Shown here piece by piece: positions 32,469-52,167 of a stretch of DNA of 56,714 bases. A program made the position numbers and the translations under genes. The stretch is taken from positions 1-56,714 of the IMG/VR virus record IMGVR_UViG_3300042534_000372. One strand, 5' to 3'. The DNA comes from a virus. Its lineage: Duplodnaviria > Caudoviricetes. Every line of letters begins with the position of its first letter. Positions within the stretch are counted from its first letter, which is position 1. The notes beneath the pieces were generated by a model, which saw nothing but the letters and a program-made list of their open reading frames with translations, did no database searches and was not told the origin of the DNA.

Positions 32469-32843
32469 ATGGGAGAAATAGAAATTATAAAAGGGAATAT
32501 TCCTAGTAAATCAAATAGTTACAGGATTATTAAAATTGGTAAGCATTCGAGTTTAGGCAAGACGAAAGAATTAAAATCTTACGAGGATAGTTTTTATTTT
32601 CAATGCAGAAAATACCGCAATAAAAACATTCAGGGAGAGTTTAAGTTTGAATGTAAAGTTTATTACGATTCTAAGAGACCAGATTTGGACGGAAGCTTTA
32701 AAGCGGTGCTAGATTGTCTTCAAAAACTAAATGCCTTTAAAAACGACAATAAGTGTGTAGAAATACACGCAAGGAAATTTAAGGATGTGAATAACCCAAG
32801 AATAGAATTTAAAATTACAGAAATTAAAGATTGGAAATATTAA
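32469..32843 (+). CDS. rusA: RusA-like Holliday junction resolvase
   Basis: PSKSN, RPDLDG..KAVLDCL...NDN, NPRIE motifs. Confidence 0.85.
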   Translation: MGEIEIIKGNIPSKSNSYRIIKIGKHSSLGKTKELKSYEDSFYFQCRKYRNKNIQGEFKFECKVYYDSKRPDLDGSFKAVLDCLQKLNAFKNDNKCVEIHARKFKDVNNPRIEFKITEIKDWKY

Positions 32844-33310
32844 TTAGATTTATCTCTTGTAGTACCTAAACTCAAATTATTATTTAGCTTAAATATGGCA
32901 GTTGTTCTAAATCTCTCTAATTCTTCCTCTTTTATATTCATGTATCTATCTCCAAATATGCAAAATAAATCTGCTACAGTTATGGCTTTTTGTTTTTCTA
33001 TCTCTATGTAAGAAATTAATGAAATATAAATACCCATTTCATTATGAAGTCTTAGTTCTGCATCTTTTAAATCACTCTTTAATGATATAATATTTTCAGT
33101 GGTGGCTAGTGTGGCTTTAATTGTTGCAATATCTTCTCTGGTTTGGATCATAAACATTATAAACAGAATAAGCACAATGCTGCATCCAGCGACAAAGCTT
33201 TTAATTATAAAAAGTAAAGTCTTATAACTTTGGTTAATCTCCGCATTTGAGATGATTAATTCATCAATTTTTCCGGCCATTTCTGCATGCATGATAAATA
33301 AGTATTGCAA
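32840..33310 (-). CDS. Membrane-anchored hypothetical protein
   Basis: One TM segment; probable start near 33280. Confidence 0.55.
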   Translation of the reverse strand: MQYLFIMHAEMAGKIDELIISNAEINQSYKTLLFIIKSFVAGCSIVLILFIMFMIQTREDIATIKATLATTENIISLKSDLKDAELRLHNEMGIYISLISYIEIEKQKAITVADLFCIFGDRYMNIKEEELERFRTTAIFKLNNNLSLGTTRDKSN

Positions 33311-33653
33311 TAAAAAACAACACTAATAGTAAAAAATAAGAGTATTCAGAATTTGATAATAACTCCCTATATAGTTCGTAATCTGCATTAGATTTAAATG
33401 CTGTTAATAACCTTATTATAGTAGGTACTATTAAATAACAACCTACTCCAATAGCAAATAAATCAGACGTTTTATTTTGCCCTATAAATAAAGCACACAA
33501 AGCAATTATAAAGGCATCCTTTAAACTGAATGAATAGATAGCCCAGAAAACGCTTTGATCTGCCGTAAATAGCAAATAAATAACAGTTAGCACCGCAAAG
33601 GCACTAACTGTAATGATGAATTTTCTAACCAAGTTTATCATGCTCTGGATCAA
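33264..33653 (-). CDS. Multi-pass membrane protein
   Basis: About four hydrophobic segments. Confidence 0.6.
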   Translation of the reverse strand: MIQSMINLVRKFIITVSAFAVLTVIYLLFTADQSVFWAIYSFSLKDAFIIALCALFIGQNKTSDLFAIGVGCYLIVPTIIRLLTAFKSNADYELYRELLSNSEYSYFLLLVLFFIAILIYHACRNGRKN

Positions 33654-33750
33654 TTGTTTCTTCTTCCTGAACTTCTTCTGGCTCGTTGTAATTCACAAAA
33701 CATTTTTTCATAACGTAAAATTTAATTAATAATTATAAAGATAAGTAAAA

Positions 33751-34173
33751 TTAATTTGGTTTTGGAACTGTGAATAAAAAAGGATTATCTCCAATTACCA
33801 AAACTGGAAGGTCGATTGTTAATATCTCAACCTCTATATCATACGGATCTGCCTTAACTGCAATACTTACGATGGCCTGAAATCCGTAATCTGATAAGAT
33901 ATTCCATGCTAATATCTTGCCGTTATTTATATTAAAATCACTAAATCCGTTATAATTTCTAACTATTGCCGTGAAATTAATATCAGTAAAGTAAGGCTTA
34001 TTAAGTGTGAATATAATTGTGTATGTAGCATGTGTAGAATCTACCCTAACTATATCAGCAACACTTATACTTACATTTACAGCTTTTACTTGATTATCCC
34101 CTAGAAACATCGCATTCTGAGCTTGACTAAACAAGCTCAGAAATACAAGTATTATAAAAATTAATCTTTTCAT
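33751..34173 (-). CDS. Signal-peptide-bearing beta protein downstream of the tail fibre
   Basis: MKRLIFIILVFLSLFSQA-Q. Confidence 0.65.
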   Translation of the reverse strand: MKRLIFIILVFLSLFSQAQNAMFLGDNQVKAVNVSISVADIVRVDSTHATYTIIFTLNKPYFTDINFTAIVRNYNGFSDFNINNGKILAWNILSDYGFQAIVSIAVKADPYDIEVEILTIDLPVLVIGDNPFLFTVPKPN

Positions 34174-37100
34174 TTAGTTGTAATTTAATCCGTATGTAAC
34201 ATTTAAATTAACTCCATCATACCACCAAGAGATAATATCTACAGAATTGGTAGTGCCTGTTAACGTTACTATACCAGCACCTCCATTTATAACTTTTGGT
34301 GTAGGTGACAGTGTTAATGTTCTTCCTCCTGTTACATCTTGTTGCACTCTAATATTACCACTCATTCCATCAATTAGATTAGTTAATGTTGCGGTGGTAT
34401 TACCCGTAAGCGTTATTTTAGCATTTACAGAGGTAGAGCAGTCGTAAGTTGGTGTTGTTCCTGAAAGTGTCTGTGTTGCTTTTTTGAATACGTTAGTTGC
34501 TGTTACTGTACCACTCATAACAGCATTACCTGTAACGTCTATACCTGACGAATTAATTTTAAACAGATCAATAAAAGTACTAGAGGTTGTCATTTGAGAG
34601 AACACATATGAGTCGCTAGTAGCAAAGCTTGTAAATGTATTAGTGAAATTAACCTCTGCATTCCCATTTGACCTATTCCAACTTATAGCCAAGCCTGTAT
34701 CTACTGACGGCAATGTTGTAGTGTTACCGTTGGCATACATAAAACCACTAGCAGTAACATTACCACCAGTATAATTACCACTAGTATCTATACGAGTAGT
34801 TCCGTTGGTTGAAATAGTAGAAGCATTCCAAGGTACTGTACCTAGATTAGAATTACCTGAGTGGTAAACAACTTTCTGAGTCAATCCAATGATCGGAGAT
34901 CCTTCAGCGGTTGCTTGTTCAGCTGCAATCCCTAAAATTAACCCATCAGGTACAAGTTTAACATATGATCTATTACTAGTAATAGGAGTACTACTTACAT
35001 ATCCGCTTGAGTTCTCGTTATGCTTAATTCCATAACCAATAAAAGGGTACGATGTACCACGCTCAGATCCAAAAGTTACAATATTTCCAGACGTATATTT
35101 ACCTAATAGAAAATTAGTTCCAGATGTAGAATTATTAGTTCCAAATGTTGTTGTTGGAAACGTATTATTAATATTCTTTAAAGCAACATTACTACTTAAA
35201 TTTCCATCTGCTAAAGTTCCTGTTGAGTTTGCTAATGCTAAGTAATAAGAACCATGTTGAGAATCTAATAAGTCAGCATTTAGATTAGTATTTAATGTTG
35301 TGCTTGTTGTGGCGTATGGCTGAGTTCCTGTTGCTACATTTGATATAAAATTAGAAGCTGTTACTGTACCACTCACAACAGCATTACCTGTTACGTCTAT
35401 TCCTCCACTAGCTTTAACTTTTAATACATCATCATTACCCCAAAATCCTATTCCAACAGTAGCTAATGAAAGATTACTATTGTAATTATATCGAACAACA
35501 CCAGCTTCATTAAGAATCTCCCTTTTACCAAAAATACCAAAAGACACATTAGCGCCTGATCCTACATTAGGCTGTTGTATTCTAAGTCTATTTTTTGTAT
35601 TGTCACTAATTAAGTTGATTTGATTACTAAAGTTACCACTACCACCAGTATAATTCCCCGAAGCATCTATGCGAGTAACTCCTGCTGTTTGTATTCCTGT
35701 TGTGGCGTTAAATACTGTTCCATTAACTTGCCCCGTAAATGTTGCACCTGTCAATAAAGCGTATAGTCCTAGATTTGGTTTATTTGTAAAATTATTATAG
35801 TCCAAATAATAACTACCAAGCTGACTATTTAATAATTGGGCATTTAGATTAGTATTTAATGTTGTGCTAGTTGTTGCGTATGGCTGAGTTCCTGTTGCTA
35901 CATTTGATATAAAATTAGAAGCTGTTACACTAGCACTGAAACTTCCACTATTGGCATTTGTCAGATCTCTGGCAGAATTAAAAATACCAAGTCCACCAAC
36001 TGAATAAGCATAAGCGTCTACATTTCCTGTATTTGTATTAAATTTTATAGGAAGTCCTGACACTCCACCATACTCTCTAATTGTTAATGTTGATGCGGAA
36101 GTACCTATTGCTTCAACAAATTGACCTGCTCCAATCGGATTCCAAACAGACCTACCACCATCTAATAATATAAATTCACTAGCAGTAATACTATTTGTAA
36201 ATGCATTAGCAATATCAAGGCGAGGAATATTAGTTATAGTTGTTGCTACACCCCCTAAAGTTGGCGTTATTGTTATCGTGTTGTTTAATTTAGTATTGCT
36301 TAATCCTTGAATTTCGTTCGTAGTACTGTTGTCGTTATCCGCAACGCTGAATGTAGTATTTACACCTGTTCCACCTGTGCCTATTGTAACATCTACACCA
36401 ACCTTACTAGATGTTGATGTAATGTTGTAATTTCCAGTCGTTGGGGATTGTCCGTTTATGGTTCTTGCTATCTCTGCATATATTACAGCGTCTTCTGTTG
36501 GATTAACTATTACTCCAAGCCCAGCTGAACCAGTTTTCACAGAAGGAGTATCGCTAAGATCATCAAACGAACTTGCGCCTACACCTCCTGTTCCACCCCC
36601 AGAAATATTTGTTTTTGTCCAGTCGATATAATCCACTAGCACCCCAGTTGTCGGATCTGTGCTTTGTCTTGTTCTTGACTGTACGGCATTACCATAATTA
36701 GTTCTTGTTTCAAAAATGACCGTTGCTACTGGTGCTAGTTCTGAAATTGGAAACTGACTAAATAACAAATCCTGAATTTCAGTTAGTGCCCCAGTTCTAG
36801 CCCCTGTTAATGTTGTATAGTCAGCCTGCCCCATTACCGTTCCAGTCTTATCGCCCAAAGTGTTTGATACAAATAGGTGATATAAAACAAAATCGCCGTT
36901 CGTAACCTCTGTTTGTTGCCATGTTCCAGCTACGTCCTCATTCCATGCAGCGCGACCTGTCCCAGTTGTTAAAATTGGGAATCCTGGTGAATCTTGCGAT
37001 CTCCATTCTGTTGTACCTTCTCTATAAAATACCGTATAACCAGTCGTGCTCAACACAGATGGGATTGATGTTATAATATCTTGATTTCTTATTACTCCAG

Positions 37101-38322
37101 AGCCATGCCCGAATTGAGCATCAGCCGCATCATTTCCAGTTCCTCCAGTTTGTATGTCAACTATTCCTAACCCCTCTAATACAACACATTTGTGCAAGTC
37201 CCAGAATGTAGACCATGTATTACCATTCATATCGAATGTATGTCGCATGTCGTTTGCGAACACAGTTGTATTATTTAAAGCATCCCAGTACATCCTAGAA
37301 GCTCCTGATTTTGAAGAATAAATATCGCGAACCTGTGATTCTGACTGATTGCTTGCTGTTGTCAACACACCTTTATCAAAATATACATCTACAGTACCTT
37401 CTATATCTGGCCATATAACGGATGGATTATCAAAGGTGTATTTAATTCCATCTTCGTATGTGTATCCTGATCCTATTATCTCAAATGTCCTAGTACCATC
37501 AATTGGTGAAAGTGTAGTTGAACCAATAATATCACTAGACCATCCTCTGGGGCTTATTACTTCTTTAGTATAACTTTCTACCAACGGATTTACATATATC
37601 TCCCCATCTGTTATGCCTAATTTCTTAACAACTCCTATGTATATATTAAAATCACCACCTGTTGCTTGTTCGTCTGTAATAAATCCATCATTACCAAGGT
37701 ATATATTATCACCAACAGCTACCCCAACATATAACGCCGAAACATTACCTTGAATTAATCCAAATCTTGTAACATTACCAGTTCCACCAGATCCTATGTC
37801 CTCAGTTGTTACGCCTATAATTCTACTCTTGTCAAAACTTGATTTGTCTGCCAGTTGAATGCTTAATCTATCAGATATTGAACCGTCAACATATACTACT
37901 TTTAAATTACTAATCAATGAAGCTGTGTTGTTGATTACTAATGGATTAAGAAGCATCCTACCTATAAGTATGGCATTTATTCCATCAGGAGTATATACCA
38001 GAGATTGAAATATAGAATCTAAATACAACTTACCCTTTTCGAATGATAGATTAGAAATGTTTGTATTAAACATTATAGAATCGAATACCATCCCAGCAGA
38101 TAAAGCATTTGCATTGAAATAATCTAAATTTAAAGCATCTTTCCCAGCTGTTGGATCTTGAACATTTACAACCTTATTCCCATTCATATCTAGCGAAAAT
38201 GTCGTACCGTCTTCACCAATTGATGCGCTTTTGTAAATTCTCAATTCATCACCCGCTACATTCTGACCCTGTGCAAATATTGAACTAAAAGCCAATATTA
38301 ATAATAAAACTATCTTTCTCAT
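34174..38322 (-). CDS. Tail fibre-like protein with N-terminal signal peptide
   Basis: 1382 aa, G/T/N/S-rich, NLNADLLD and shaft repeats, at the end of the tail module. Confidence 0.8.
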   Translation of the reverse strand: MRKIVLLLILAFSSIFAQGQNVAGDELRIYKSASIGEDGTTFSLDMNGNKVVNVQDPTAGKDALNLDYFNANALSAGMVFDSIMFNTNISNLSFEKGKLYLDSIFQSLVYTPDGINAILIGRMLLNPLVINNTASLISNLKVVYVDGSISDRLSIQLADKSSFDKSRIIGVTTEDIGSGGTGNVTRFGLIQGNVSALYVGVAVGDNIYLGNDGFITDEQATGGDFNIYIGVVKKLGITDGEIYVNPLVESYTKEVISPRGWSSDIIGSTTLSPIDGTRTFEIIGSGYTYEDGIKYTFDNPSVIWPDIEGTVDVYFDKGVLTTASNQSESQVRDIYSSKSGASRMYWDALNNTTVFANDMRHTFDMNGNTWSTFWDLHKCVVLEGLGIVDIQTGGTGNDAADAQFGHGSGVIRNQDIITSIPSVLSTTGYTVFYREGTTEWRSQDSPGFPILTTGTGRAAWNEDVAGTWQQTEVTNGDFVLYHLFVSNTLGDKTGTVMGQADYTTLTGARTGALTEIQDLLFSQFPISELAPVATVIFETRTNYGNAVQSRTRQSTDPTTGVLVDYIDWTKTNISGGGTGGVGASSFDDLSDTPSVKTGSAGLGVIVNPTEDAVIYAEIARTINGQSPTTGNYNITSTSSKVGVDVTIGTGGTGVNTTFSVADNDNSTTNEIQGLSNTKLNNTITITPTLGGVATTITNIPRLDIANAFTNSITASEFILLDGGRSVWNPIGAGQFVEAIGTSASTLTIREYGGVSGLPIKFNTNTGNVDAYAYSVGGLGIFNSARDLTNANSGSFSASVTASNFISNVATGTQPYATTSTTLNTNLNAQLLNSQLGSYYLDYNNFTNKPNLGLYALLTGATFTGQVNGTVFNATTGIQTAGVTRIDASGNYTGGSGNFSNQINLISDNTKNRLRIQQPNVGSGANVSFGIFGKREILNEAGVVRYNYNSNLSLATVGIGFWGNDDVLKVKASGGIDVTGNAVVSGTVTASNFISNVATGTQPYATTSTTLNTNLNADLLDSQHGSYYLALANSTGTLADGNLSSNVALKNINNTFPTTTFGTNNSTSGTNFLLGKYTSGNIVTFGSERGTSYPFIGYGIKHNENSSGYVSSTPITSNRSYVKLVPDGLILGIAAEQATAEGSPIIGLTQKVVYHSGNSNLGTVPWNASTISTNGTTRIDTSGNYTGGNVTASGFMYANGNTTTLPSVDTGLAISWNRSNGNAEVNFTNTFTSFATSDSYVFSQMTTSSTFIDLFKINSSGIDVTGNAVMSGTVTATNVFKKATQTLSGTTPTYDCSTSVNAKITLTGNTTATLTNLIDGMSGNIRVQQDVTGGRTLTLSPTPKVINGGAGIVTLTGTTNSVDIISWWYDGVNLNVTYGLNYN
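35276..35928. repeat. 89-bp intragenic direct repeat (35276-35364, 35840-35928)
   Basis: VTASNFISNVATGTQPYATTSTTLNTNLNA encoded twice with 2 nt differences. Confidence 0.9.
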
Positions 38323-38324
38323 AT

Positions 38325-39548
38325 CTATTGTTTATTTATTATCGTTTGTAAAGTTATTGTAGCACTTGCGCCAACTCCTGTTATCTCAATGTAAGCCGTG
38401 AATGATGCACTTGGATCTGATTGATTTACGTAATTACGTGCAATATTTTCAACTACTTCGGAGCTTAGCACGGTTGTATCTCTTAATATTTCGCTACCGC
38501 TTGGTGTTGTGCCTATTCTAACAGTAACACTAGCCCCTGCTGTTATTTGTATCGTTATTTGATTTAGTGAATAACCACCATCTATCACAAGTTGTTGTGA
38601 TCCACTTGCATTGCTTTTAACTTTTGGTATTACTGCTGCCATGTCGTTATTATCTATTATTATATATCCCTGATCATCTGAATTAAGAGCTACCGAATTT
38701 GATTCTGTTATCGTTCCTGTTAATACAGGATATGTGTAATTTGCAAAATATTCAAATTCAAAATTATCATCAGATGAATACTTTGCGTTGTTTATGTAAA
38801 AGCTATCCACTTTAGATAAAATAGACATTTTAAACAGTAAGTATGGTGCGACCGCCTCTGTTTTTAATTCAAATACTCTTTGGGAAATAGATTTTAAGAT
38901 CGTTAAGCTACCTTGATTATCGTAATTATCTATCTCTCCGCCCATTTGTTGCTTACCAACATGTCCATTCATCCAGATATTCACCTCAAACGGATCACCT
39001 TGGATTCTATCGTTACCCCAATAATTATATATTTGATTACCGCTATTTGATGCCAATACTTTAAAGTGATTTGGTATTGTTTCGTAAGGAAACTTAGTCC
39101 CGTCTGATCCGTATCTATAGTTTGTAATCGACTCGACAATATCAAATGGTTCTGACTGGAAATACAAATTATTTAATTCTAGTGGGTTTGTTGCCTTAAT
39201 TGTCATATAGTAGGTTCCTGCTGGATATCCCGTAAATTCGAACTCATAAAACGCATACCAACCATTTAAAGGATCTGTCGCTTCGATTACCTTAAATACA
39301 ACTATTGAAGTTTCATTACCTAAAGAATCTATAAGCAAAGCTTCTATAGTAGATCCAGTATTAATATCGTAATCTGTCTTTAATTGATTTCGTATCTTAT
39401 CAGAAGATATAAATTTTTGCCTGTCGGAACCCCTCACGACACCAATAAACTCTTCTTCACACGAAAGTGTATTAGAATAGTTTGGTAACAGTCCGTTTCT
39501 TGCCTTAAACTCAAGGTCGTTTACTGGTGCTATTTCAAATGTAGCCAT
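38325..39548 (-). CDS. Minor tail protein
   Basis: Synteny in the tail module. Confidence 0.65.
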   Translation of the reverse strand: MATFEIAPVNDLEFKARNGLLPNYSNTLSCEEEFIGVVRGSDRQKFISSDKIRNQLKTDYDINTGSTIEALLIDSLGNETSIVVFKVIEATDPLNGWYAFYEFEFTGYPAGTYYMTIKATNPLELNNLYFQSEPFDIVESITNYRYGSDGTKFPYETIPNHFKVLASNSGNQIYNYWGNDRIQGDPFEVNIWMNGHVGKQQMGGEIDNYDNQGSLTILKSISQRVFELKTEAVAPYLLFKMSILSKVDSFYINNAKYSSDDNFEFEYFANYTYPVLTGTITESNSVALNSDDQGYIIIDNNDMAAVIPKVKSNASGSQQLVIDGGYSLNQITIQITAGASVTVRIGTTPSGSEILRDTTVLSSEVVENIARNYVNQSDPSASFTAYIEITGVGASATITLQTIINKQ

Positions 39549-39549
39549 A

Positions 39550-40128
39550 TCAGTATCCTATTGCTTGAACAAACATTGTTATATCTCCACTATATGAATC
39601 ATCCCTATTGTACGTAAATCCTGTTTTTGTTTTACTGTACGGCTCGTTCGTGTAGCTAGCTCCAGTAACTACTAGATTAACACATGCTGTAGGGAATGGA
39701 TAAGGAAAGTTTAACTGCTGGTCAGTATCTACATTGGATATAAATTTAAACCATTGCATTCTCATTCCGTTTGATAATTGAGTCCACCCCTGCTCTAATG
39801 TGTTATTCACAATACCAATGCCATCATCAACATATTTTTTTGTTGCAGGATGATAATCTAGTGTTGGTGTGTAAATCGCCAAATTCGTTTTAGAGATATA
39901 ATTTAAAAACAATGTGTTTATCTGAGCTTGCGTGTAAACATCTAAATTAGTAGTTGTAAAATCTAAAAGTTGTTGCATTGTCATATTTTCAGACAACGAA
40001 CCCACTTGTCCTATTGCGATTCTATCCGTAAGCTCAGGGTTTGCATTTAAATCAAGCCCAAATAGTTTCCTTTGAGCGTTAGCCGAAAATGAAACGGCTA
40101 CTAATAATAAAATAATTATCTTTTTCAT
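39550..40128 (-). CDS. Short tail fibre-like protein (gp53-like C-terminus) with signal peptide
   Basis: MKKIIILLLVAVSFSANA-Q; HPATKKYVD; GWTQLSNGMRMQW...FPYPFPTAC. Confidence 0.75.
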   Translation of the reverse strand: MKKIIILLLVAVSFSANAQRKLFGLDLNANPELTDRIAIGQVGSLSENMTMQQLLDFTTTNLDVYTQAQINTLFLNYISKTNLAIYTPTLDYHPATKKYVDDGIGIVNNTLEQGWTQLSNGMRMQWFKFISNVDTDQQLNFPYPFPTACVNLVVTGASYTNEPYSKTKTGFTYNRDDSYSGDITMFVQAIGY

Positions 40129-40129
40129 A

Positions 40130-42910
40130 CTAATCAATTGTAAATTGTTCGTTATCATCATCTGTAAAAATCTCTAAATCATCATCTATTGCATAAGTCT
40201 CTTCTGCCACGGTTATATATTTTGAAACTGGTATTATCTCAATAGTTGCTTTCGATTGAAACCCGCCTGTATTTAAGTCATTAATCCATCCATATTTATA
40301 AGCTTGATAAACATTTTCTCTGTATCCGATAAGGCTATAAACCTTAGGCTTACCGTCTTCGTGATATTGATTTAAAGTATTTTTTTGAATCGAAGTTATT
40401 AATGCATCAAAAGTAATTAATTCAACTCCATACAAAGGTGTATCTAAATCGTTAACTAACACATTAGTACTTTCTGAAACCTCTTTAGATTCTCCAGTAA
40501 CCTTGCTTACTAAGGTACTTATTTTATCGCTATTTGAAAAAACGTATTCAGTGTTTAATTTATACTCTAAAGGTGCGCGGAGTTTAAATCCATGTCTTAC
40601 AAGTGATCTAGCAGGAGATAGTCTAATATTATAAGAATCGTCTGCGTTTACAATTCCTCTTATGTAATCAAATCCCTCGTTTGTTCTTGCCTTGTATTTA
40701 GCTGAATCGCTTACGTAGATATCATCTAATATTAATTGATTAGTTCCTAATTGATTCGCTAAAAATGCGGTATTAAACGATACTGTTATGTAGTTGATAT
40801 TTTCCAATGCTTCATTTGCTCCTACTGAAAAATTAAACATCGATTGAAAATTGTTTAATTTAATCCCATTTACTGAAGGTGCTGCGTATGCATTAGATCC
40901 CTCAATCCAACTACCTAATGAATTTAAAGACCATTTAGAATTATCGTTTAACGTTGCAGTTATCTGGAATGTTGGCGTGAACACTAACCCCGTAACGGTG
41001 CTTATGACAGCGTAAGAAAAAGATAAAATTGGCTCTTTTATTGAAGTTATATTTTGAGAAATCATACTCTGACCGTTGGAGTATCCGAGCACAAATCTAT
41101 TGCTGCCTATCAAGTTTTCAACTGTCACAACGTTGGAGATAGCCCAGTCGGTAGTGCCCTGTTCTGCATCACCGTTTGATACCGCATTACCTGTTGTGTT
41201 CTCAACAAGATCAATCATGTAGTTAATGTCGTCATACTTTGAGTCGGTAGTTGGCTTTTCTTTTTTAGTTATTCTTCTAGCTTCATTTATTGATGTGTTA
41301 GATGCAGATATCTTACTAATGACTATTTCTTTTTTATCTGTTGATGTTATTGCATTAGACCATCCAGATTTTGTATTGTAATCATAAAATCCATCTACCT
41401 TTTCATCTGATTCAAATTTAGAATACCCGAACTCAACCTGATTAGGAATGAAATCTTTGTTGTATTCTGATTTTAATTCCGTTGCATTATCAATCAGCAT
41501 TACCACCCTTGTATCAAAAAAGTATTGTAACTCCTCGATAAAGAATACTTTATTTCCATTAAGCAGTTTAACGCCCATCCCGATAGGCGTAATCGTATTT
41601 AAAGCCTCGAAAGCATCTTTGAGCGATATAGATAAAGGCGCAATTGGTTCCGAATACCCAACGCCGTTAGTCATTGGAAACCCTCGTATTAACGCCCCAT
41701 TCGTAAATGCTAATAAAGATAGGTATCCGTTATATGTGTACTTTAATGGCTCTGAATCTTTACGCCCTAAAATCTCACTGTAGAATGGTATGTTTTCAGA
41801 AGTTATAACTTGCCCTATCCTATTCATCATTTCAGATGCAAGCATTCCTTTTACGTTTTTCTGTGGCGCGAAACCGCCCTGTGTTCGTATCGAAAAATCT
41901 ATTACAGCCCCCCTGCTTACGCTTGCGCCAAATGTATAATTATCTTGGAAAACTCCAATCTGTAAATAATTACCATTTTGCACTGTTATTAATTCAGATA
42001 ACTCGGATACTACACTGTATGAGTTAAGAAAAAAATCAGCACTAAGAAATGTTACTGTCCCTGTTATATCTATTGTTAATATAATATTATCATTTGTATC
42101 AATAACGTACAAAAACACTTTCACATCACTAGTGCTTTGTATGAACGCCGAAATGTTAGCTACAAGACTTATCGTTCCGTTTATATCTACAATTACATCT
42201 ATACCCGTATTGTTTGCGTAAAATGCACCAGATATACTTTTAAATACATTTGAATTTGATGTAACATTATCGTCAGCACCGCTAATTTTAGTCAATACAG
42301 GTATTAATGGGTCTTTATCTAATGTAGACTCATACGATTGATTCTTGTCTGACTCCATACTATTATTAAGGTAATCTATCCGATTAGGTAATGTGATATC
42401 ATTCCCCTCATTCGCATAGCCAGGAAGTTCTTTCCCATCTAAAGATTTGTAAATTTCATCTTGTGATTTCTTTGTGACAATAACAGGAATAGATTCTCTA
42501 CTTATCACCTTTCTTTCAAAGCTTGAATCGTCAATAGGCACTGTGTATTTTAATTCGTCAACATCTTTGTCTATTAGTTGAACATTACCCTGAAAAACCT
42601 TTTCGTTAATAATTGTTGTGGGGTTATACTCCCATACTTCTAATATAATTTCAGCCTCGAATCCTTGCTCTAATTCTGCCTTTTCCAAGAATGCTTTACC
42701 TTCTTTAACGAATCCTAATTTAGACAATGAATACTTTCTGAATATTCCTGAATACGTACCAGATCTAGAATAGCTATACCCTGCATCACTCCAACCATCT
42801 GGCGCGTGTGTTAATCTTACCCTACCCAGTGATGGATTAGATAAGAAAAACGTTAAGTATGTAGTTGTATTCGTTGGCCTATACCAAGTCCTAGTTGTGT
42901 TATTGCTCAT
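40130..42910 (-). CDS. Minor tail / baseplate hub protein
   Basis: 926 aa directly after the tape measure gene. Confidence 0.7.
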   Translation of the reverse strand: MSNNTTRTWYRPTNTTTYLTFFLSNPSLGRVRLTHAPDGWSDAGYSYSRSGTYSGIFRKYSLSKLGFVKEGKAFLEKAELEQGFEAEIILEVWEYNPTTIINEKVFQGNVQLIDKDVDELKYTVPIDDSSFERKVISRESIPVIVTKKSQDEIYKSLDGKELPGYANEGNDITLPNRIDYLNNSMESDKNQSYESTLDKDPLIPVLTKISGADDNVTSNSNVFKSISGAFYANNTGIDVIVDINGTISLVANISAFIQSTSDVKVFLYVIDTNDNIILTIDITGTVTFLSADFFLNSYSVVSELSELITVQNGNYLQIGVFQDNYTFGASVSRGAVIDFSIRTQGGFAPQKNVKGMLASEMMNRIGQVITSENIPFYSEILGRKDSEPLKYTYNGYLSLLAFTNGALIRGFPMTNGVGYSEPIAPLSISLKDAFEALNTITPIGMGVKLLNGNKVFFIEELQYFFDTRVVMLIDNATELKSEYNKDFIPNQVEFGYSKFESDEKVDGFYDYNTKSGWSNAITSTDKKEIVISKISASNTSINEARRITKKEKPTTDSKYDDINYMIDLVENTTGNAVSNGDAEQGTTDWAISNVVTVENLIGSNRFVLGYSNGQSMISQNITSIKEPILSFSYAVISTVTGLVFTPTFQITATLNDNSKWSLNSLGSWIEGSNAYAAPSVNGIKLNNFQSMFNFSVGANEALENINYITVSFNTAFLANQLGTNQLILDDIYVSDSAKYKARTNEGFDYIRGIVNADDSYNIRLSPARSLVRHGFKLRAPLEYKLNTEYVFSNSDKISTLVSKVTGESKEVSESTNVLVNDLDTPLYGVELITFDALITSIQKNTLNQYHEDGKPKVYSLIGYRENVYQAYKYGWINDLNTGGFQSKATIEIIPVSKYITVAEETYAIDDDLEIFTDDDNEQFTID

Positions 42911-45900
42911 TATGATTTCATTTTATCAAGTCTTGAATGGTTTCTTTCTATCATTCTATTTCCTCTTTTTGTTATAACCCCATCTCTTTGAGTGATCGAT
43001 GTTCTTTGCTTTAACGCTTTTTCAATTCTACTCAATCCCCCAACTATATTACTGTCGCTAAAATTTGAACTGTACCCAATTCCTAGTCCGTCAAGCATTG
43101 CCATAGATTCTTTATGAGGTATTACCTGACTTCCAGCCATATCGGAATACATTGTTGCCTTGTTGGGTGTTATAAACATTGAGCCGTTAGGTCTTTTTAT
43201 AATCTCTTTTCCAGCCTCACCCGCTACGAATTGACTAGGAGTATTGAATTTACCATGTGTTCCATCTTTGAATTTTGGTATTGGAGTCGCTAAAACTACA
43301 GCTGTCTGTATCGCAGCACTTGCTAATGTAAAAGGTATCGTTAACAATGAAGCTCCGAACGTTGCAACCGAAGCTGCATAAGCTTGAGCTACCCCAACTG
43401 CTGCACTTATTGCAATTTGAGATATAGCCGCCAATTTATCAGCTTTAGCCTGTTTTGTTTTTATCGCAGCTGTTCTTTGAGCAGCCTCATCCTCTACCTT
43501 TGCCTTTTCTTCCGCAGATCTTACATTGATAGCTGTTCTTTGCGCTGCTGCTTGATCTTCTGTAAGTAATCCTCTATCAAATTTATCTTGAACGTTTGCC
43601 AAATCAACCTCTGTTTCCGCATCAACCCTTTCTAAGTCTTCGCTTCTTTGTTCATCTACTCGTTCTAATTCTGCATCTCTTCTTTGAGACGCACCCTCAA
43701 ATAAAACATCTGATAAACCTTGTGCTGCTTGTGCCGCTAGATCTATAGAGATATCCCTTATTTGAGTTTGTCTATACTCATGCTCTTTAGCGTCCCTATC
43801 GGAAATAAATCTTCTCTTAGCTGCACCATCTAAAGCATTTTGAATCATTTTATCCTCAAAACTCTTATTCTCACTAATTCTATCCTTATTGCTGGATAAC
43901 TCTATTCCTTGAATCGTGTTTTCAAATCCTAAAATTATAGCTTCTTGCTTCTTTTTTTCTTCTTCTAATACTTTTGTTTCTTCTTTTAATTTCGCCCCTG
44001 ATCCTTTTAATGAATCCCTTTTTTCTTTAGCTATCTTCTTATTTAATTCTATCTCTGCATCCTCTCGTTGCTTTATTTGTATTGCTATTAATGGCAATAT
44101 TAAATCGCCTCGCTGCTTCATTTCACCAGTAGTAAATGAAGAAAATGACATTTGTATCTTTTTAAGATCTTCTAAGCTTTTATTTTCTATATCGAACCTT
44201 TTTGCCAATCCATCAGCGGCTGCATCATTCCTAGCTTTTTCAATCTCTAACCCTAATCTGTTACCTATTTCTACTTGCGTCTCCCATATCCTTTTAGTTT
44301 CAGTTTTATTAAATTGACTCGCCTCTAAGAACGCATTTAAAGCATCTGACGTAAGTGTGCCCTGAGCATTTCTAGCACGTTCTATATTAGATAGGTACTC
44401 TTCAGCTCCGCTACTATTCTCTTTCCAGAATTTAATCGTTGAATCTACAGCTCCTGTTGCGCCAACATCTACGGCGTCTGTTTCATCAGTTATTTTATTT
44501 AAAATGCTAGTTATCTCGTCTAAAAAGTTTTTTATAAATCCTTCGCTATCTTTAAATTTAAGGACTACTCCATCCCACGCACTGCCGAGCTGAATCATTG
44601 AAGATGCTGCATTTTCAGTCCTTGTTTCAACCATGACTTTTAACGCATCATTTACGCCAGTAATATTATTTCTCAACGTCCTAGCACTTTCTGCTCCTTC
44701 TACAAATGTACTGAATGCGGAAACACTCTTGACGTCTGTTAATTCTAGCGTCTCGCCAAGATCGAAACCCTCCTTATTCATTTTAACTAAAGCGTCGATC
44801 ATCTGATCAAAATTCTTAACGCTACCACCCATAGTTTTAGCTAGCGCACCATTCGCGTCAGCCATGTTAAGGAATATCTTTCTGGTTGCTGTCGCAGCAC
44901 TAGATGCATCAAATCCAGAATCTCTTAATTTACCCAATAAAGCAATAGTATCTTCGAGTGAGAATCCAAACTTTTTAGCAACAGGAAGTACGGTAGATAG
45001 ATTGCCTTCGTAATCCTCAAATGAAAGAGCTGATTTAGTGGTAGCTACAGCCAATACACTTGACACTCTTTCCATTTCAGACGCATCCAAACCTAGCGCT
45101 CTAAGTGTAGATCCTGCAACTTTAGCCGCTGGAGCTAACTCTGAATCTGTAGCTAATGCTAAATCTAGTATCGATCTAGTTGAGTTCCTTATCTCATCGT
45201 TATTGAATCCAAGTTTCGCAAGTTCAGTCTGTAATTGAGCCACTTGTACCGATGTGAACTGTGTTGATTTTCCAAATGCTAAAGAGTCATTTGTTAAATC
45301 TACTATTTCTTTTTTAGTTTTTCCAAGCACGGATGCAAGGACAGAGTTTGCTTTACTATATTGAATTACAGTTTGCGTGGCACTTGTTAGAATTTTGGCG
45401 AATGCGGCGACACCTCCAACCAATCCGAATGCACCAATTAACGACGTGGCTGCTGTTCTTATACCCTCTGCATATTTGCCTACCCCTCTAGTAGCGTTTC
45501 CTTGCGCAGCCTCAACTCTTGAAAGTTCGGCGCGTTGAGATTTTATAGTTTCTGTTAATTTCTTTCCCTCTTGACTCTGTTCTCGTTCCGCCTTTGTTAG
45601 TTTACCAACCGCAATAAGATTTGCAGATAGCGATGCTTTGATTGCGTTTATCGATCCTTTCAGAGCCTCGTTAGTTAATTGTGAGCGTTTAGACTCAGTT
45701 ATATTATTCTTAACCTCTTTATTTACTTCTTGTAATTTAAGTTTAGATTTAGTCAAAGAAATTACAGCCTGACTTCTCGCTTTGTCAAGCTTTGCATGAG
45801 TCTGCAATTGCTCATTTCTTATCCTATTCTCCTCCTTTTCAACCGCAGTAAGTTTCTTTTTCGATTCTGTATTGTTATTATTTTGCGCTGGTATTTTTTG

Positions 45901-46032
45901 ATTCTCAGAAATTAGTTTATCCGTAACCTCAATAAGCTTATTAATAGCTGTAACGCCTTTTAATATCTCATCGGTATATGATGTTACGCTCTTTAAAAGT
46001 TCGGGCGTAAATGGATTCTGTATTGTAGCCAT
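42910..46032 (-). CDS. Tail tape measure protein
   Basis: Helical and Ala-rich; GKSTQFTSVQVAQLQTELAKLG; GEAGKE motif. Confidence 0.92.
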   Translation of the reverse strand: MATIQNPFTPELLKSVTSYTDEILKGVTAINKLIEVTDKLISENQKIPAQNNNNTESKKKLTAVEKEENRIRNEQLQTHAKLDKARSQAVISLTKSKLKLQEVNKEVKNNITESKRSQLTNEALKGSINAIKASLSANLIAVGKLTKAEREQSQEGKKLTETIKSQRAELSRVEAAQGNATRGVGKYAEGIRTAATSLIGAFGLVGGVAAFAKILTSATQTVIQYSKANSVLASVLGKTKKEIVDLTNDSLAFGKSTQFTSVQVAQLQTELAKLGFNNDEIRNSTRSILDLALATDSELAPAAKVAGSTLRALGLDASEMERVSSVLAVATTKSALSFEDYEGNLSTVLPVAKKFGFSLEDTIALLGKLRDSGFDASSAATATRKIFLNMADANGALAKTMGGSVKNFDQMIDALVKMNKEGFDLGETLELTDVKSVSAFSTFVEGAESARTLRNNITGVNDALKVMVETRTENAASSMIQLGSAWDGVVLKFKDSEGFIKNFLDEITSILNKITDETDAVDVGATGAVDSTIKFWKENSSGAEEYLSNIERARNAQGTLTSDALNAFLEASQFNKTETKRIWETQVEIGNRLGLEIEKARNDAAADGLAKRFDIENKSLEDLKKIQMSFSSFTTGEMKQRGDLILPLIAIQIKQREDAEIELNKKIAKEKRDSLKGSGAKLKEETKVLEEEKKKQEAIILGFENTIQGIELSSNKDRISENKSFEDKMIQNALDGAAKRRFISDRDAKEHEYRQTQIRDISIDLAAQAAQGLSDVLFEGASQRRDAELERVDEQRSEDLERVDAETEVDLANVQDKFDRGLLTEDQAAAQRTAINVRSAEEKAKVEDEAAQRTAAIKTKQAKADKLAAISQIAISAAVGVAQAYAASVATFGASLLTIPFTLASAAIQTAVVLATPIPKFKDGTHGKFNTPSQFVAGEAGKEIIKRPNGSMFITPNKATMYSDMAGSQVIPHKESMAMLDGLGIGYSSNFSDSNIVGGLSRIEKALKQRTSITQRDGVITKRGNRMIERNHSRLDKMKS

Positions 46033-46034
46033 AA

Positions 46035-46724
46035 TTATCTAGCTTTTAATTTTTGTTGTTTTTTAATTGCCATATCGTAATCAAATTTAAGAGACGATAC
46101 GCTTTTACTCCTATCGAAATATCCGTTCTTTTCAACAGCCTCGATAAAATGAATAACCGCATCTAATCCAGTATTCCTATCATCCTGAGCAACCGCTTCT
46201 TTTTGTTTCGGCTGTCTTTCTTCAATCTTATATCCTAAACGTTTAATTTCGTTCTCTATAGGCTTTAGAATCGAATCTATTTGCTTTTGCTGATCTTCTG
46301 CATAAATCTTATATTCAGAAGCAGTCATTTGCATTTCTTCCTCGTGTGTTTTTGATTCGATTGATTTTGGATAATCAAAATATATTGATCTGTAAACCTG
46401 CTTTAAGCTATCTAATGCTTTTATCTTGCCCTCTTTAGTATCTCGCAAGTCGTAAACCATCTTTAACCCATCATACAACAATGATAATTTACGCTGCTTT
46501 AATCTCATTCCCTGAATCATCACATCCAAATCAATCAAATTACTCATTTCCTCACTTGAAAATAACTCTTGGAGCTCTGTTATGAATTTAGAATAAGCCT
46601 TTTTAGCTAGAATTTTCTTAGCAGGATTAATCGATACGCCACGAATGATCATTAAATAATCCTCGCTTATTATCATTTGCTGACAATCCTTTACGCTAAT
46701 TGAATGTATTGAGTGATAGTTCAT
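46035..46724 (-). CDS. Probable tail assembly chaperone
   Basis: Helical, directly upstream of the TMP, with own TATCTTTG element at 46752-46759. Confidence 0.5.
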   Translation of the reverse strand: MNYHSIHSISVKDCQQMIISEDYLMIIRGVSINPAKKILAKKAYSKFITELQELFSSEEMSNLIDLDVMIQGMRLKQRKLSLLYDGLKMVYDLRDTKEGKIKALDSLKQVYRSIYFDYPKSIESKTHEEEMQMTASEYKIYAEDQQKQIDSILKPIENEIKRLGYKIEERQPKQKEAVAQDDRNTGLDAVIHFIEAVEKNGYFDRSKSVSSLKFDYDMAIKKQQKLKAR

Positions 46725-47583: not shown

Positions 47584-47877
47584 ATGGAAAAGAATTGTAA
47601 TAATTGCGAAAAGGTAAATGGTTGCACAATGAAAGCTTACTGCAAGGGGCACAGACTTAATTATTGCAGATTTTACGAAGTGGAAGCAAAGCCTGTGATA
47701 GAAGAAAATGAATTTAAAACCAAGTTAAAAAACTTTGAAGACGCGGCAAGACCTTTAATTAAATGGCTTTGCGAAAACGAGCACCCAATGGTAACTGCAA
47801 TAATAACGACAACATCATGTGAGCTTTTAGAGGGCAAGTGTTGTAACCATAAAATATATGATTACGTTAAAGATTAG
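47584..47877 (+). CDS. Hypothetical protein inside a hairpin loop
   Basis: FEDAARPLIKWLCENEHP motif. Confidence 0.75.
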   Translation: MEKNCNNCEKVNGCTMKAYCKGHRLNYCRFYEVEAKPVIEENEFKTKLKNFEDAARPLIKWLCENEHPMVTAIITTTSCELLEGKCCNHKIYDYVKD

Positions 47878-48076
47878 TGCGTAGGGTTTTATTTTTAACA
47901 ACTTAAAAACGAGAACCAGACTTAAGCATGGTTTTTATTTAATATTATAATACTTCGCCAAAGCCTTACTTGAATTTTGAGTATAACGATACTTTGGCGT
48001 GGTTTATAATGAGCAGGGCTTAGTTGCGTTTAAACTAAATTTGATACGATAACACAAACTAACAAGACAAAGAGCG

Positions 48077-48382
48077 ATGGAAGAAACATTAAAAAAATAC
48101 GGAATAAGTAAGCAATTGTTTTTAAAGGTTACTGAGTTTATAAAACTACAAGTTGACTTAGGTATGATTAATACCCTTACTGACCAAGAGCAAATAGCAG
48201 CAGAAATATTAATAATGGCGAGCGAGGGGATTAAGCTGAAAACGAGTAATGATAAATGCAATTTAGCTAGTATTAACAATAGCGAAGCGATGGGTTGCGA
48301 GCACAAAAATTATTCATATACATTAAATAACGATACAAAACTATGTGATGATTGTGGGTGTATATTTGAGCGAGAAAACTGA
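48077..48382 (+). CDS. Cassette protein crossing a hairpin arm, C-terminal Zn-ribbon
   Basis: CNLASINNSEAMGCEH...CDDCGC. Confidence 0.75.
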   Translation: MEETLKKYGISKQLFLKVTEFIKLQVDLGMINTLTDQEQIAAEILIMASEGIKLKTSNDKCNLASINNSEAMGCEHKNYSYTLNNDTKLCDDCGCIFEREN

Positions 48383-48432
48383 TTGTTAATGAATGGTGGT
48401 ATGGTTAGATTTTTAACGACTTAAAAGAACGA

Positions 48433-48696
48433 ATGATGATAGTATTAACAGACCAAGATTTAGAAGAAATAGTTGCAACTGCACACATGGCAGGACAGCA
48501 AAAAGCAGGGGTTAAAACACCAACTTATTATGATGCACACCTTTATTATGCGAGGCAAGTTAAAAAATTAACTATACCACGTGTTAGCAAACGAAGTGAA
48601 CTGTTAATTGGCTTGCTTGAAATGCTCGAAAAAGAAGGTGGTAATGATTTTATAGATAAAGCTGAAATAGTAGCAAAATATGAAGCCAATTTATAG
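48433..48696 (+). CDS. Cassette protein crossing a hairpin arm
   Basis: KKLTIPRVSKRSELLIG...NL*. Confidence 0.75.
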   Translation: MMIVLTDQDLEEIVATAHMAGQQKAGVKTPTYYDAHLYYARQVKKLTIPRVSKRSELLIGLLEMLEKEGGNDFIDKAEIVAKYEANL

Positions 48697-48744
48697 TTGC
48701 TAATGAATGGCTAAAGTTACTTTTAAACTTAAACATCTGATACA

Positions 48745-48975
48745 ATGGCAGAAGAGAAAATAGAAATTTCAGAAAGTGAAAGATTTATGCAGGTCTACTT
48801 TAAGGAATTGCAAAAAGTGAAAGAGAGATTTCGCGTTAAAGATTCTGAATTTATAGGAATATCAGAATCAAAAGCGAGCAGAATTCTAAATGGAAAACAA
48901 ATAGATATTGAAGCTATGCTTGAGATGGCTCCCATGTCTGGATATACTTTTGAATTTAAATTAATAGAAAGATAA
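48745..48975 (+). CDS. XRE-like HTH protein after the array B terminus
   Basis: ISESKASRILNGKQIDI; resembles 19214-19468. Confidence 0.7.
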   Translation: MAEEKIEISESERFMQVYFKELQKVKERFRVKDSEFIGISESKASRILNGKQIDIEAMLEMAPMSGYTFEFKLIER

Positions 48976-48979
48976 TAAC

Positions 48980-49156
48980 ATGAGCGAATCAATTAAATGG
49001 TTACAGAAAAATAAACGCTTTATAAAGATTAGCGTAATTGAAATTGAGCTTGGAATGGCAGATACTATCTTAAGTAAGGCCGTGAATGAAAAACAGGCAT
49101 TATCTAAACATTGGGATAAGCCTTTGAATGAGTTTTTAACAGAATTAAAGAAATAG
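48980..49156 (+). CDS. Small HTH protein (paralog of 20249 and 53945)
   Basis: MSESIKWLQKNKRFIKISVIEIELGMADTILSKAVNE, read manually. Confidence 0.7.
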   Translation: MSESIKWLQKNKRFIKISVIEIELGMADTILSKAVNEKQALSKHWDKPLNEFLTELKK

Positions 49157-49305
49157 GAAATGGAAGAATTTATCATTTATGCTATAAGTATTATTCTTGC
49201 ATTTACAATGGGTAGATACGTAAAGAGTACGCCATTTAAAATAATACTAATGGTTATACTAATCTGTGTCGCTTCAGTAATAAAAAATACAATATAAATA
49301 AACCA

Positions 49306-49926
49306 ATGAAAAAAGAATTCAAATTACCTAAAGGAGTTGATATTGATCAAATAAATATTGACGTAAAAGGAAACTTATTAACAGTTATCTACAAGGAAGA
49401 AAGCAAACCAATTATTAAAGCTGGTGAGTGGTGGTATCACAGCACCGGAACATTGAATTTAATACTTGAAGTTAATCAGGATAGTCGAATAGCAAAGTGT
49501 ATGCCTATTTATGGCGATGGGATAAATGCATCATTCCACGGATTTGAAACAATGACTCGTAAGGCCGACATGAAAGAAGTTAAAAGTCTTTTGATGGATG
49601 AGGCTGTGAAGAAAGGGTATGATTATGGAACAATTGTTTATGGATTCGTAAATATTGGACAAACTTCTAAACTTAATGATGCTCCTTTTTATTTCGATAA
49701 CGGCGGAATGTATTTAGGTAATGTTTGTATATTTAATTATCACAGTGGCAAATGGGCTGAGATCATCGAAGAGAAGAAAGATTTTTACAGGGTAGTTAAA
49801 TGCAGCCTGAAGGTATTAAAGGTTATATGCGATGGATTGCCTGAAACAGATACTTTATCTAAGGTGATGACCAAACAGAAATGTTACAAATACATATATG
49901 ATAATTGGGATAAACTAAATAAATAA
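49306..49926 (+). CDS. Hypothetical phage protein
   Basis: GKWAEII and RKAD..EV..LL..EA.KKGY motifs. Confidence 0.75.
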   Translation: MKKEFKLPKGVDIDQINIDVKGNLLTVIYKEESKPIIKAGEWWYHSTGTLNLILEVNQDSRIAKCMPIYGDGINASFHGFETMTRKADMKEVKSLLMDEAVKKGYDYGTIVYGFVNIGQTSKLNDAPFYFDNGGMYLGNVCIFNYHSGKWAEIIEEKKDFYRVVKCSLKVLKVICDGLPETDTLSKVMTKQKCYKYIYDNWDKLNK

Positions 49927-49928
49927 AA

Positions 49929-49960
49929 CAAAACCCTCTTTAATCGGAGGGTTTTTTCTT
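49929..49960. terminator. Intrinsic terminator
   Basis: AAAACCCTC...GAGGGTTTTTT. Confidence 0.8.
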
Positions 49961-50339
49961 TTCAACTGTTCGGTATTTCCGGATAGTTGGATTTTGATAG
50001 ATTACTAACTGTTCAGTATTAAATCAATAGTCGCTAACATTAAACATCCATCTAAAATAGTCAGAAAAACAGCCATGTTATTAATTTTACGTATTGAATT
50101 ATTATTTCTTGCTAGCCATATGTAAATTAATGTAATCATGTTTATTATTTTTAGTTATTGTTTATTTCAAACTCATCAATTCATAAATAAAAAATATAGC
50201 CCACAGCACAAATAATGTCACAAACATTTTGATGTAAATAATATTCTCAGTCCAAACTCCAAGTATTAAAGATGATGAGAATACAAGGATGCATAAATAT
50301 TGTATTAGTCTAATCTTTTTCATAGTCTTTATTTTTAAT

Positions 50340-50591
50340 CTAACTCAACTCACAACTAGTAAGTGCATATTTCATTTTATGAATTAAATCTTGTTTTTTC
50401 AATCCATCCTTACAATGATTATTAATCAACTGCATTAACTCAGTATAAAAATCAGGTTTAATTGTGCTTTTATTTTCACTGAGTTTTGACTCTAACCATT
50501 CAATGTATTTTTGACTACTCGTTTCAAATAATAATTCAACACCTTTAAATTTAGATCTCTTTTCTTGTTCGAATTGTTCTCTGTGATTCAT
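50340..50591 (-). CDS. Hypothetical protein
   Basis: YIEWLE motif; ORF track. Confidence 0.6.
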   Translation of the reverse strand: MNHREQFEQEKRSKFKGVELLFETSSQKYIEWLESKLSENKSTIKPDFYTELMQLINNHCKDGLKKQDLIHKMKYALTSCELS

Positions 50592-50951
50592 GTTTATTAT
50601 TTTTAGTTTAATTATTTGTATTCAATGTCCTCTATGTGATATATCATTAAAAGAGATTTAAAGATAATACACACTCGATATAATTACATTGATCTAATCA
50701 TATCAGGCAAAGTTAATACCGGCTATGTTCCGGCTGTTGTACTCTCTAAGCTTACGCTATCACATTGAGAACGGAGTTAAGATTGTGGCTCATTGCTCCG
50801 GATATTTTAACAATTAACTCTATACCATGCCTTTTAACTTATTCGATTTATAGAACATTATTAAACAGGTCTTATCTTTTGTTTTTAGTCTGGCTTAAAT
50901 CTTTACAGGCACTTAAAGAGAATTGATAACTTTAAGCGAATAGAAGGCAAG

Positions 50952-51075
50952 AAAAAATCCTGTTGGCAGACCGTTCAAAACGGGTGAAACATGCCAAACA
51001 GGACTAATATAGATTGAAATAATAATGTCTTTTCTGTAATAGATGTTTCACCTTCTATTCAATAAGACAAAGTTA
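50952..51075 (-). promoter_or_regulatory. Promoter plus putative attenuator/leader RNA
   Basis: TAACTTTG element; GGTGAAACAT/ATGTTTCACC pairing overlaps a CCTGTTTGGCA...TGCCAACAGG terminator. Confidence 0.5.
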
Positions 51076-51219
51076 ATCATTATTAATGTGTTTTACAACA
51101 TGTTTAAAGATGTTCTATATTAAAATAATTCTGTGTAGGTTTGTTGTACCGAAAAAATCGATCAAACATTACGAGTATATTCTCCCCTACCAAAAGGAGG
51201 CTCATGATCGGATAATAAG

Positions 51220-51249
51220 AAAAGCCAGGTCTTCGGATTTGGCTTTTTT
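51220..51249. terminator. Intrinsic terminator
   Basis: AAAAGCCAGGTC-TTCG-GATTTGGCTTTTTT. Confidence 0.75.
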
Positions 51250-51312
51250 ATTTGCTATTGTAATATATAAGGTGTATATTTGTGTAGTATTAATTAAAAC
51301 TAAAACAATAAC

Positions 51313-51459: not shown

Positions 51460-51526
51460 TTGTTAACGGATTACGGCTATGAAGCGTTGCCGATTAAAAC
51501 GCTATAACTTTCAAATTTAAACTAAG

Positions 51527-51679: not shown

Positions 51680-51766
51680 TGTTTGGTAATGAGCATTGGT
51701 AAGTTTTGAACCGATAATAACCGATTAATTTCGATACGAGTAGTAATGTAAATTAAAATTTTTATC

Positions 51767-52108: not shown

Positions 52109-52167
52109 CGTTGAATGTAAGGTGCGTTGCTGTACCAATGTTAAACAAAGAATAAAACTTAAATATT

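Follow-up and report, generated by a model that had tools for sequence, protein, structure and literature searches.

Two fibre proteins, one of them putative, and a small accessory protein encoded in the tail operon of a tailed virus (Duplodnaviria; Caudoviricetes) begin with predicted Sec leaders of the Bacteroidota signal-peptidase I type. The reading favoured here, with a probability of roughly 45%, is that these leaders are real and would export the fibres, which would then join the tail at lysis. The window, meaning the whole stretch of DNA analysed, is the entire virus record IMGVR_UViG_3300042534_000372 (56,714 bases; guanine-cytosine content ~33%), and its distal tail module lies on the minus strand between 46.0 and 32.8 kb (PHROG and Pfam scans). 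A preliminary description had pointed to three tail-module proteins with such starts; all three open reading frames (ORFs) and their leaders were recovered in place, each leader basic, then hydrophobic, ending in a small-x-small site and followed by Gln. The leaders are probably adapted to a Bacteroidota host belonging to the Flavobacteriia. The carriers and their leaders are (aa, amino acids):

39550-40128, minus strand: small tail fibre, 192 aa, with an 18-aa leader, a conserved N-domain of ~85 aa and a lectin-like head of the gp53 / R-pyocin type
40075-40128, minus strand: small-fibre leader MKKIIILLLVAVSFSANA, predicted to be cut before Gln19
34174-38322, minus strand: putative large tail fibre, 1382 aa, with a 19-aa leader, an N-terminal region conserved as far as residue ~700, a middle that varies and a C-terminal domain of ~110 aa that is again conserved
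38266-38322, minus strand: large-fibre leader MRKIVLLLILAFSSIFAQG, predicted to be cut before Gln20 or, as an alternative, after Ala17, before Gln18
33751-34173, minus strand: 140-aa accessory protein with an 18-aa leader; its ATG abuts the stop codon of the large fibre
34120-34173, minus strand: 140-aa protein leader MKRLIFIILVFLSLFSQA, predicted to be cut before Gln19

In n-region, h-region, residues -3/-1 and Gln at +1, the three leaders are those predicted for Bacteroidota signal-peptidase I substrates. The starts (MKK, MRK and MKR) give a positive n-region free of acidic residues, as they do in the leader-bearing homologs, and the h-region is short, uncharged and rich in Leu, Ile, Val and Phe. 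Small residues occupy -3 and -1 ahead of the Gln (ANA↓Q in the small fibre, AQG↓Q or IFA↓Q in the large fibre, SQA↓Q in the 140-aa protein). When scanned with a 19-residue hydropathy window, the small-fibre leader fails and the other two pass weakly (1.78 and 1.83), compared with 2.35-2.58 for the best segments of the two neighbouring membrane proteins, and the hydrophobic runs of the leaders are predicted to be too short for a membrane helix. A crude n-h-c rule, applied to the ATG-started frames of at least 60 aa, was passed by 6 of 292, three of which are the small fibre, the large fibre and the 140-aa protein. The leaders were judged by this rule together with comparison, and chance does not account for them, as they recur in homologs in which the leader has diverged in sequence. 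A Gln at +1 is the Bacteroidetes-specific Q-rule, carried by more than half of the signal-peptidase I clients of the phylum (PMC5837995), and this Gln stabilises extracytoplasmic proteins (PMC10653852). The preliminary description had stated that such substrates in Bacteroidota often begin with Gln, which agrees with that account of the Q-rule.

The leaders could be artefacts of start-codon assignment, with translation beginning downstream, a reading that is very improbable overall and serious for the 140-aa ORF only. That ORF has an in-frame ATG at codon 22 that is used by one database gene call, and the Met is conserved in its homolog; its true start may lie downstream. For both fibres the suggestion of a downstream start fails: the next Met lies at about residue 46-50, inside a conserved domain. 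The assigned ATGs follow the upstream stop codons by 1 nucleotide (nt) in the small fibre, 2 nt in the large fibre and 0 nt in the 140-aa protein. Two closely related contigs, L003 and L005, share the ATG of the small fibre with and without a leader, and the leader is conserved as protein in homologs.

Conservation of the leaders in homologs, proposed as a check in the preliminary description, was found for the large fibre, the small fibre and the 140-aa protein. The large-fibre family consists of 15 proteins counting the query, with a leader in six (P0001-5 and P0013) and none in the nine more distant members; among the leader-bearing close homologs M1, K3, L7 and Q20 are invariant (6/6) while the other leader residues vary. 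The small-fibre search returned 30 proteins, 11 with a leader (among them P0027, whose start is truncated), all 11 of them among the 20 stronger matches; the other nine stronger matches and all ten weaker ones have no leader. In the alignment A4, which joins the 20 stronger homologs and the L003 copy in 21 rows, 12 rows carry a leader. Among 1.84 billion representatives only one homolog of the 140-aa protein was found (P0047, 32% identity), with a near-identical leader. The strongest argument for the favoured reading is that Gln +1, small residues at -3/-1 and a short h-region are kept amid sequence drift, and therefore the site would really be used by periplasmic processing.

By its head the small fibre belongs to the gp53 / R-pyocin family. 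Its C-terminus scores 35 bits, above the cut-off of 24.9, for Pfam PF21882 (Gp53-like_C; E 2.2e-8), and sequence matches in the PDB, though weak, are to R2-pyocin fibres and AP22 gp53 (6ct8, 6cl6 and 4mtm). An AlphaFold2 (AF2) model places residues 105-192 at high predicted local distance difference test (pLDDT) values, and its Foldseek matches are 6cxb, 6ct8, 6cl6 and 4mtm (E ~1e-5, probability 1.00), then H-type lectins. In alignment A4 the conserved domain of ~85 residues at the N-terminus is followed by at least four unrelated types of C-terminal head, and an N-domain with swapped heads is the usual build of a virion-anchored receptor-binding protein. The tail-fibre nature given to both proteins in the preliminary description thus stands directly for the small fibre (PF21882, Foldseek and swapped heads) and indirectly for the 1382-aa protein (position and homologs).

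The 1382-aa protein has no match in Pfam, PHROG, NCBIfam or the PDB, and the AF2 model of residues 1-700 (mean pLDDT 48.9) is too poor for a fold search; that it is a fibre we infer from its position and its homologs. These share a region to about residue 700 and diverge beyond it, and one of them, P0005, contains PF13884, the S74 chaperone family. P0006, which has no leader, shares 40% identity over residues 26-598, and therefore the fibre body also exists in a leaderless form. The C-terminal ~110 aa (34174-34500) recur almost unchanged in P0003 and P0013 and in part in the leaderless P0006, with differing middles, which suggests that head modules are exchanged between fibres. A BslA-like identity was considered for the 140-aa protein and set aside, the best atlas score to a BslA-like cluster (0.77) being below the level of a usable lead. 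The three leader-bearing proteins contain 1, 2 and 0 Cys, and therefore disulfide formation is no motive for export.

In the small-fibre family the leader comes and goes. Nine leaderless homologs start with M, one to four residues and (R/K)KLF, which coincides with the predicted cleavage point of the leader-bearing forms, and these starts map what would be the mature N-terminus of the small fibre. A tree of the N-domain (21 sequences) needs three gains or losses of the leader, and its well-supported branches force at least two. The contigs L003 and L005 are 97-99.5% identical in DNA in three blocks and 93.6% in a fourth, across ~8.3 kb; the small fibre of L003 has 51 extra nt relative to L005, coding for the n-, h- and c-regions, and both proteins continue with Gln-Asp-Arg-Leu-Leu-Phe. 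The clean 51-nt insertion or deletion and the tree together mean that the leader is a detachable module with quick turnover.

These exchanges bear on an alternative in which there is no effective export: secretion would be inefficient or shut down late, or the N-terminus would be parked at the inner membrane face, with assembly in the cytoplasm and a leader that is kept or otherwise trimmed. Such an account, which we hold to be unlikely, agrees with the textbook view of tailed-phage assembly as wholly cytoplasmic. Small fibres with and without a leader replace one another in near-identical phages, the partner proteins (a hub-like protein and a 407-aa protein) are cytoplasmic, and a trimeric fibre of 1382 aa would be a demanding Sec substrate. 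What it leaves unexplained is the leader itself, as without periplasmic cleavage nothing selects the invariant Gln +1, the small residues at -3/-1 and the short h-region. The leader also abuts a conserved docking domain, where a retained hydrophobic extension should obstruct and where the leaderless forms have none, and leaders of this pattern are found again in the cultured phage phi18:3 and in other, unrelated proteins of the module.

The rest of the tail operon has no such leaders, and its members and the membrane proteins at its end are:

42910-46032, minus strand: tape measure, 1040 aa, without a leader; PF10145 at E 2.8e-31 and PHROG tape-measure families; opens the distal tail module
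40130-42910, minus strand: hub-like virion structural protein, 926 aa, without a leader; phrog_15220 at E 6.7e-57; N-terminus MSNNTTR, without a hydrophobic run
38325-39548, minus strand: 407-aa tail protein, without a leader, between both fibres
33264-33653, minus strand: membrane protein with four hydrophobic segments (hydropathy scan), at the end of the tail operon
32840-33310, minus strand: membrane protein whose one hydrophobic segment covers residues 33-51 and whose C-terminal part is long and polar (hydropathy scan)

The 407-aa protein has no Pfam or PHROG match, and none of the 14 members of its family carries a leader. This specificity, with leaders absent from the 407-aa family, the hub and the tape measure, counts for the favoured reading. 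The two membrane proteins, which the preliminary description had noted after the leader-bearing tail proteins, were both seen in the hydropathy scan; they have no family match in Pfam, PHROG or NCBIfam, and the product of 33264-33653 may be holin-like, to judge from its position and topology.

The same gene order was found in three related sets of phage contigs (L003/L009, L004/L005 and L010), which run from tape measure through hub, small fibre and a 402-405-aa protein to the large fibre, leader-bearing in all of them. After the large fibre these relatives encode extra proteins with Gln-rule leaders, of 503, 114 and 272 aa, and such predicted leaders on the downstream proteins of L003, L004/L005 and L010 also count for export. 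The 114-aa protein (L004, 5293-5637) has a C-terminal hydrophobic segment besides its leader, and the 272-aa protein (L004, 5634-6452) has leucine-rich-repeat-like repeats. The 503-aa protein (L005, 13120-14631) is a leader-bearing fibre whose C-terminus matches the S74-bearing (PF13884) end of the L003 fibre.

The closest parallel in a cultured phage is Cellulophaga phage phi18:3 (NC_021794), in which gp085, gp086 and gp087 are annotated as 'structural/tail protein' from experimental tandem mass spectrometry (MS/MS) proteomics and start with MKNKITIIMILMSISFGYS, MKKTIYILSILLLTISGVSA and MKHTFSIVLFFILSIGLNA, each followed by Gln. Nine other MS/MS-annotated proteins of phi18:3 have no leader. 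The likeness lies in consecutive structural/tail proteins of a phage of Flavobacteriia, each with an MK start, a hydrophobic run and a small-x-small site before Gln; the difference is that phi18:3 belongs to another phage family (Pachyviridae) and that its proteins have no detectable sequence relation to those of the window. By this analogy, the one line of support for the point, the window proteins may be parts of the particle.

The leaders having these properties, we infer the following course of events. Both fibres and their 140-aa partner would be threaded unfolded through SecYEG and cleaved before Gln, the new N-terminus probably being cyclised to pyroglutamate by a host glutaminyl cyclase, and the exported proteins would fold in the periplasm and form trimers there. 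The leaderless parts (heads, tail tube, hub and 407-aa protein) would meanwhile assemble in the cytoplasm, and the conserved N-domains of the fibres would dock on the finished tail tip once the inner membrane is broken by the membrane proteins encoded last in the operon. Put more generally, some tailed phages of Bacteroidota may be built in two compartments, with cytoplasmic heads and tails and with Sec-exported, pyroglutamate-capped, periplasm-folded fibres, joined when the inner membrane is breached; this we offer tentatively, at somewhat under even odds.

Several points weigh against this proposal, among the weightiest the free loss of the small-fibre leader and the cytoplasmic place of the partner proteins. 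The hub and the 407-aa protein have no leaders, so exported fibres must find a cytoplasmic partner late, and we know of no described mechanism for the late joining of exported fibres in tailed phages. The window has no recognisable endolysin, and therefore the lysis step is also conjectural; export and cleavage of the window proteins are themselves predictions from sequence. The alternative ATG at codon 22 of the 140-aa ORF counts here too. The leader is dispensable for the small fibre, as seen from L003/L005 and the tree, and therefore export is not obligatory there. For phi18:3, the MS/MS annotation is silent on leader removal, and secreted proteins could co-purify with particles. Two cultured siphophages that are distant relatives, one of Leeuwenhoekiella and one of Tenacibaculum, lack leaders on their tail proteins, and therefore the trait is lineage-specific.

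Tailed phages do export proteins, among them spanin lipoproteins, signal-arrest-release (SAR) endolysins, the T4 antiholin RI, lambda Lom and superinfection-exclusion lipoproteins of the T5 Llp type. The window proteins resemble these in being phage-encoded and in using, as predicted here, the host Sec machinery. They differ in that none of the known examples is a receptor-binding fibre, and the window leaders have no lipobox Cys and are not Gly/Ala-rich. The small-fibre head is like that of AP22 gp53 (Acinetobacter phage; 4mtm) and of the R1/R2 pyocin fibres (6cxb, 6ct8 and 6cl6). To our knowledge, phage and pyocin fibres with gp53-type heads lack a signal peptide and are assembled in the cytoplasm. 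Searches of open-access papers and preprints yielded no account of Sec leaders on tailed-phage fibres, and against this searchable literature Sec leaders on tail fibres are unusual.

The leaders are like those of Q-rule signal-peptidase I substrates (PMC5837995; PMC10653852) in their positive n-region, short h-region, small residues at -3/-1 and Gln +1; the known substrates are cellular envelope or secreted proteins, whereas the carriers in the window are tail-operon proteins of a tailed phage, whose cleavage and pyroglutamate formation are predictions. The closest similarly working system, by analogy, is the MAT family of Bdellovibrio bacteriovorus (PMC10769870), which are bacterial adhesins and not a phage tail part. 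These trimeric, phage-fibre-like adhesins have a signal peptide, a conserved N-terminal domain and, in some cases, S74. A leader combined with an S74-type C-terminus is likewise seen in relatives of the window fibre (P0005 and the 503-aa protein). MATs are encoded by chromosomal genes of a predatory bacterium and serve its own surface or vesicles, whereas the window genes belong to a phage tail operon.

Such systems give some ground for a further alternative, quite unlikely in our judgement, in which the exported proteins have their main or sole place of action at the cell envelope, as adhesins or by binding or masking receptors, or are divided between the envelope and a virion pool. Receptor masking could bring about superinfection exclusion and could keep progeny from sticking to debris. 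The leader anatomy would be the same as under export with late attachment, and free loss of the small-fibre leader fits an accessory role of export. Bdellovibrio exports its phage-fibre-like MAT adhesins (PMC10769870), and phages of P. gingivalis encode Q-rule proteins of unassigned function that are read as envelope modifiers in PMC10367356. Three more small secreted-looking proteins are encoded outside the tail operon of the window, which would mean that the phage sends proteins to the envelope. Yet the genes in question sit within the tail operon, tightly coupled to the hub and the 407-aa gene, the same operon slot is taken by leaderless homologs, and the small fibre has the architecture of a virion-anchored protein, a conserved N-domain with swapped heads. 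No C-terminal domain of the type IX secretion system (T9SS) that would serve surface delivery was found, and the leader-bearing phi18:3 proteins are annotated from virion MS/MS.

Other routes and signatures of secretion were tried and rejected. An NCBIfam scan (E up to 1) found no C-terminal sorting domain in seven proteins, which sets aside type IX secretion cargo; the models concerned, TIGR04183 and TIGR04131, we take to be those of the T9SS sorting domains. None of the three leaders contains a Cys or a lipobox, which rejects lipoproteins cleaved by signal peptidase II. A SAR domain is a weakly hydrophobic helix rich in Gly, Ala and Ser and has no cleavage site; the h-regions here abound in Leu, Ile, Val and Phe and run into small-x-small sites, and a SAR or signal-anchor domain was rejected.

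The motif of general O-glycosylation in Bacteroidota is D-(S/T)-(A/I/L/V/M/T), and no excess of it was found in the large fibre (2 observed, 7.0 expected), the small fibre (0 and 0.9) or the 140-aa protein (1 and 0.5). Pooled counts were 25 against 48 expected in 12 leader-bearing proteins, five of which are homologs of one another, so that the counts are not independent, and 43 against 47 in 14 leaderless structural proteins. The control motif D[ST][^AILVMT], that is D-(S/T)-other, was equally low in the leader-bearing set (41 against 73 expected), and therefore the shortfall is a general deficit of the D-S/T dipeptide, from which no inference is drawn. The Asp-Ser/Thr dipeptide itself was counted 66 times against 121 in the shuffled expectation in leader-bearing proteins (including large-fibre homologs and NC_021794 gp085-087) and 104 times against 127 in leaderless structural proteins.

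If the favoured reading is true, the order of tailed-phage assembly changes, fibres reach periplasmic folding and modification, and the N-terminus in the particle differs from the encoded one. Fibres of this kind would then need different expression for structural or host-range work, and a Gln-rule leader on a fibre could serve in host prediction as a marker of a Bacteroidota host. Gain or loss of the leader between phages that are 97-99.5% identical would be a quick evolutionary switch of the compartment in which fibres mature. What the window contributes is a long-tailed, tape-measure-bearing lineage of the Flavobacteriia type, a control family that never bears a leader (the 407-aa protein) and a natural pair with and without a leader that is directly testable.

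Elsewhere in the window, the PHROG and Pfam scans identified the small and large terminase, the portal and a capsid-family protein between 5.8 and 12.4 kb, as well as a block of recombination and replication genes. The large terminase shares 36% identity with those of Flavobacterium phages, and the nearest cultured phages infect Flavobacteriia. The hub gave weak tblastn matches to a Leeuwenhoekiella phage virion structural protein and a Tenacibaculum phage hypothetical protein (26-27% identity over 19-26% of the query). Among cultured phages there was no megablast match to 33000-43000 and no tblastn match to the large fibre, and the small fibre gave partial matches only. Scans of viral contigs with the hub and with the large-fibre alignment A1 returned no match, and two scans of genome contigs found no host or prophage copy. 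No endolysin was recognisable by Pfam or PHROGs among the ORFs scanned; the remaining candidates are unannotated ORFs, for example 1412-1954, 1966-2904 and 2907-3194 (a 95-aa membrane protein with two segments).

A single tRNA-Phe (GAA) lies at 12478-12548 on the minus strand, just upstream of the small terminase, and an early-region ORF at 22063-22944 (minus strand, 293 aa) matches the radical-SAM family PF04055 at 28.1 bits, just below the Pfam cut-off of 29.5. The structural genes are interrupted by small plus-strand genes (47584-55399), which stand between the minus-strand ORFs 46035-46724 and 55609-56238; the latter, a PHROG 'tail protein' (phrog_6195), is split by this block from the tape-measure end of the tail module. 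Within the block, on the strand opposite to the tail operon, 53103-53429, 53613-53939 and 54489-54974 encode the three small proteins mentioned above (108, 108 and 161 aa), which have no Pfam or PHROG match. All three have secretion-type leaders, in two of which a plausible cleavage site precedes a Gln (SFS↓Q and VKS↓Q), and they may be envelope-directed accessory genes.

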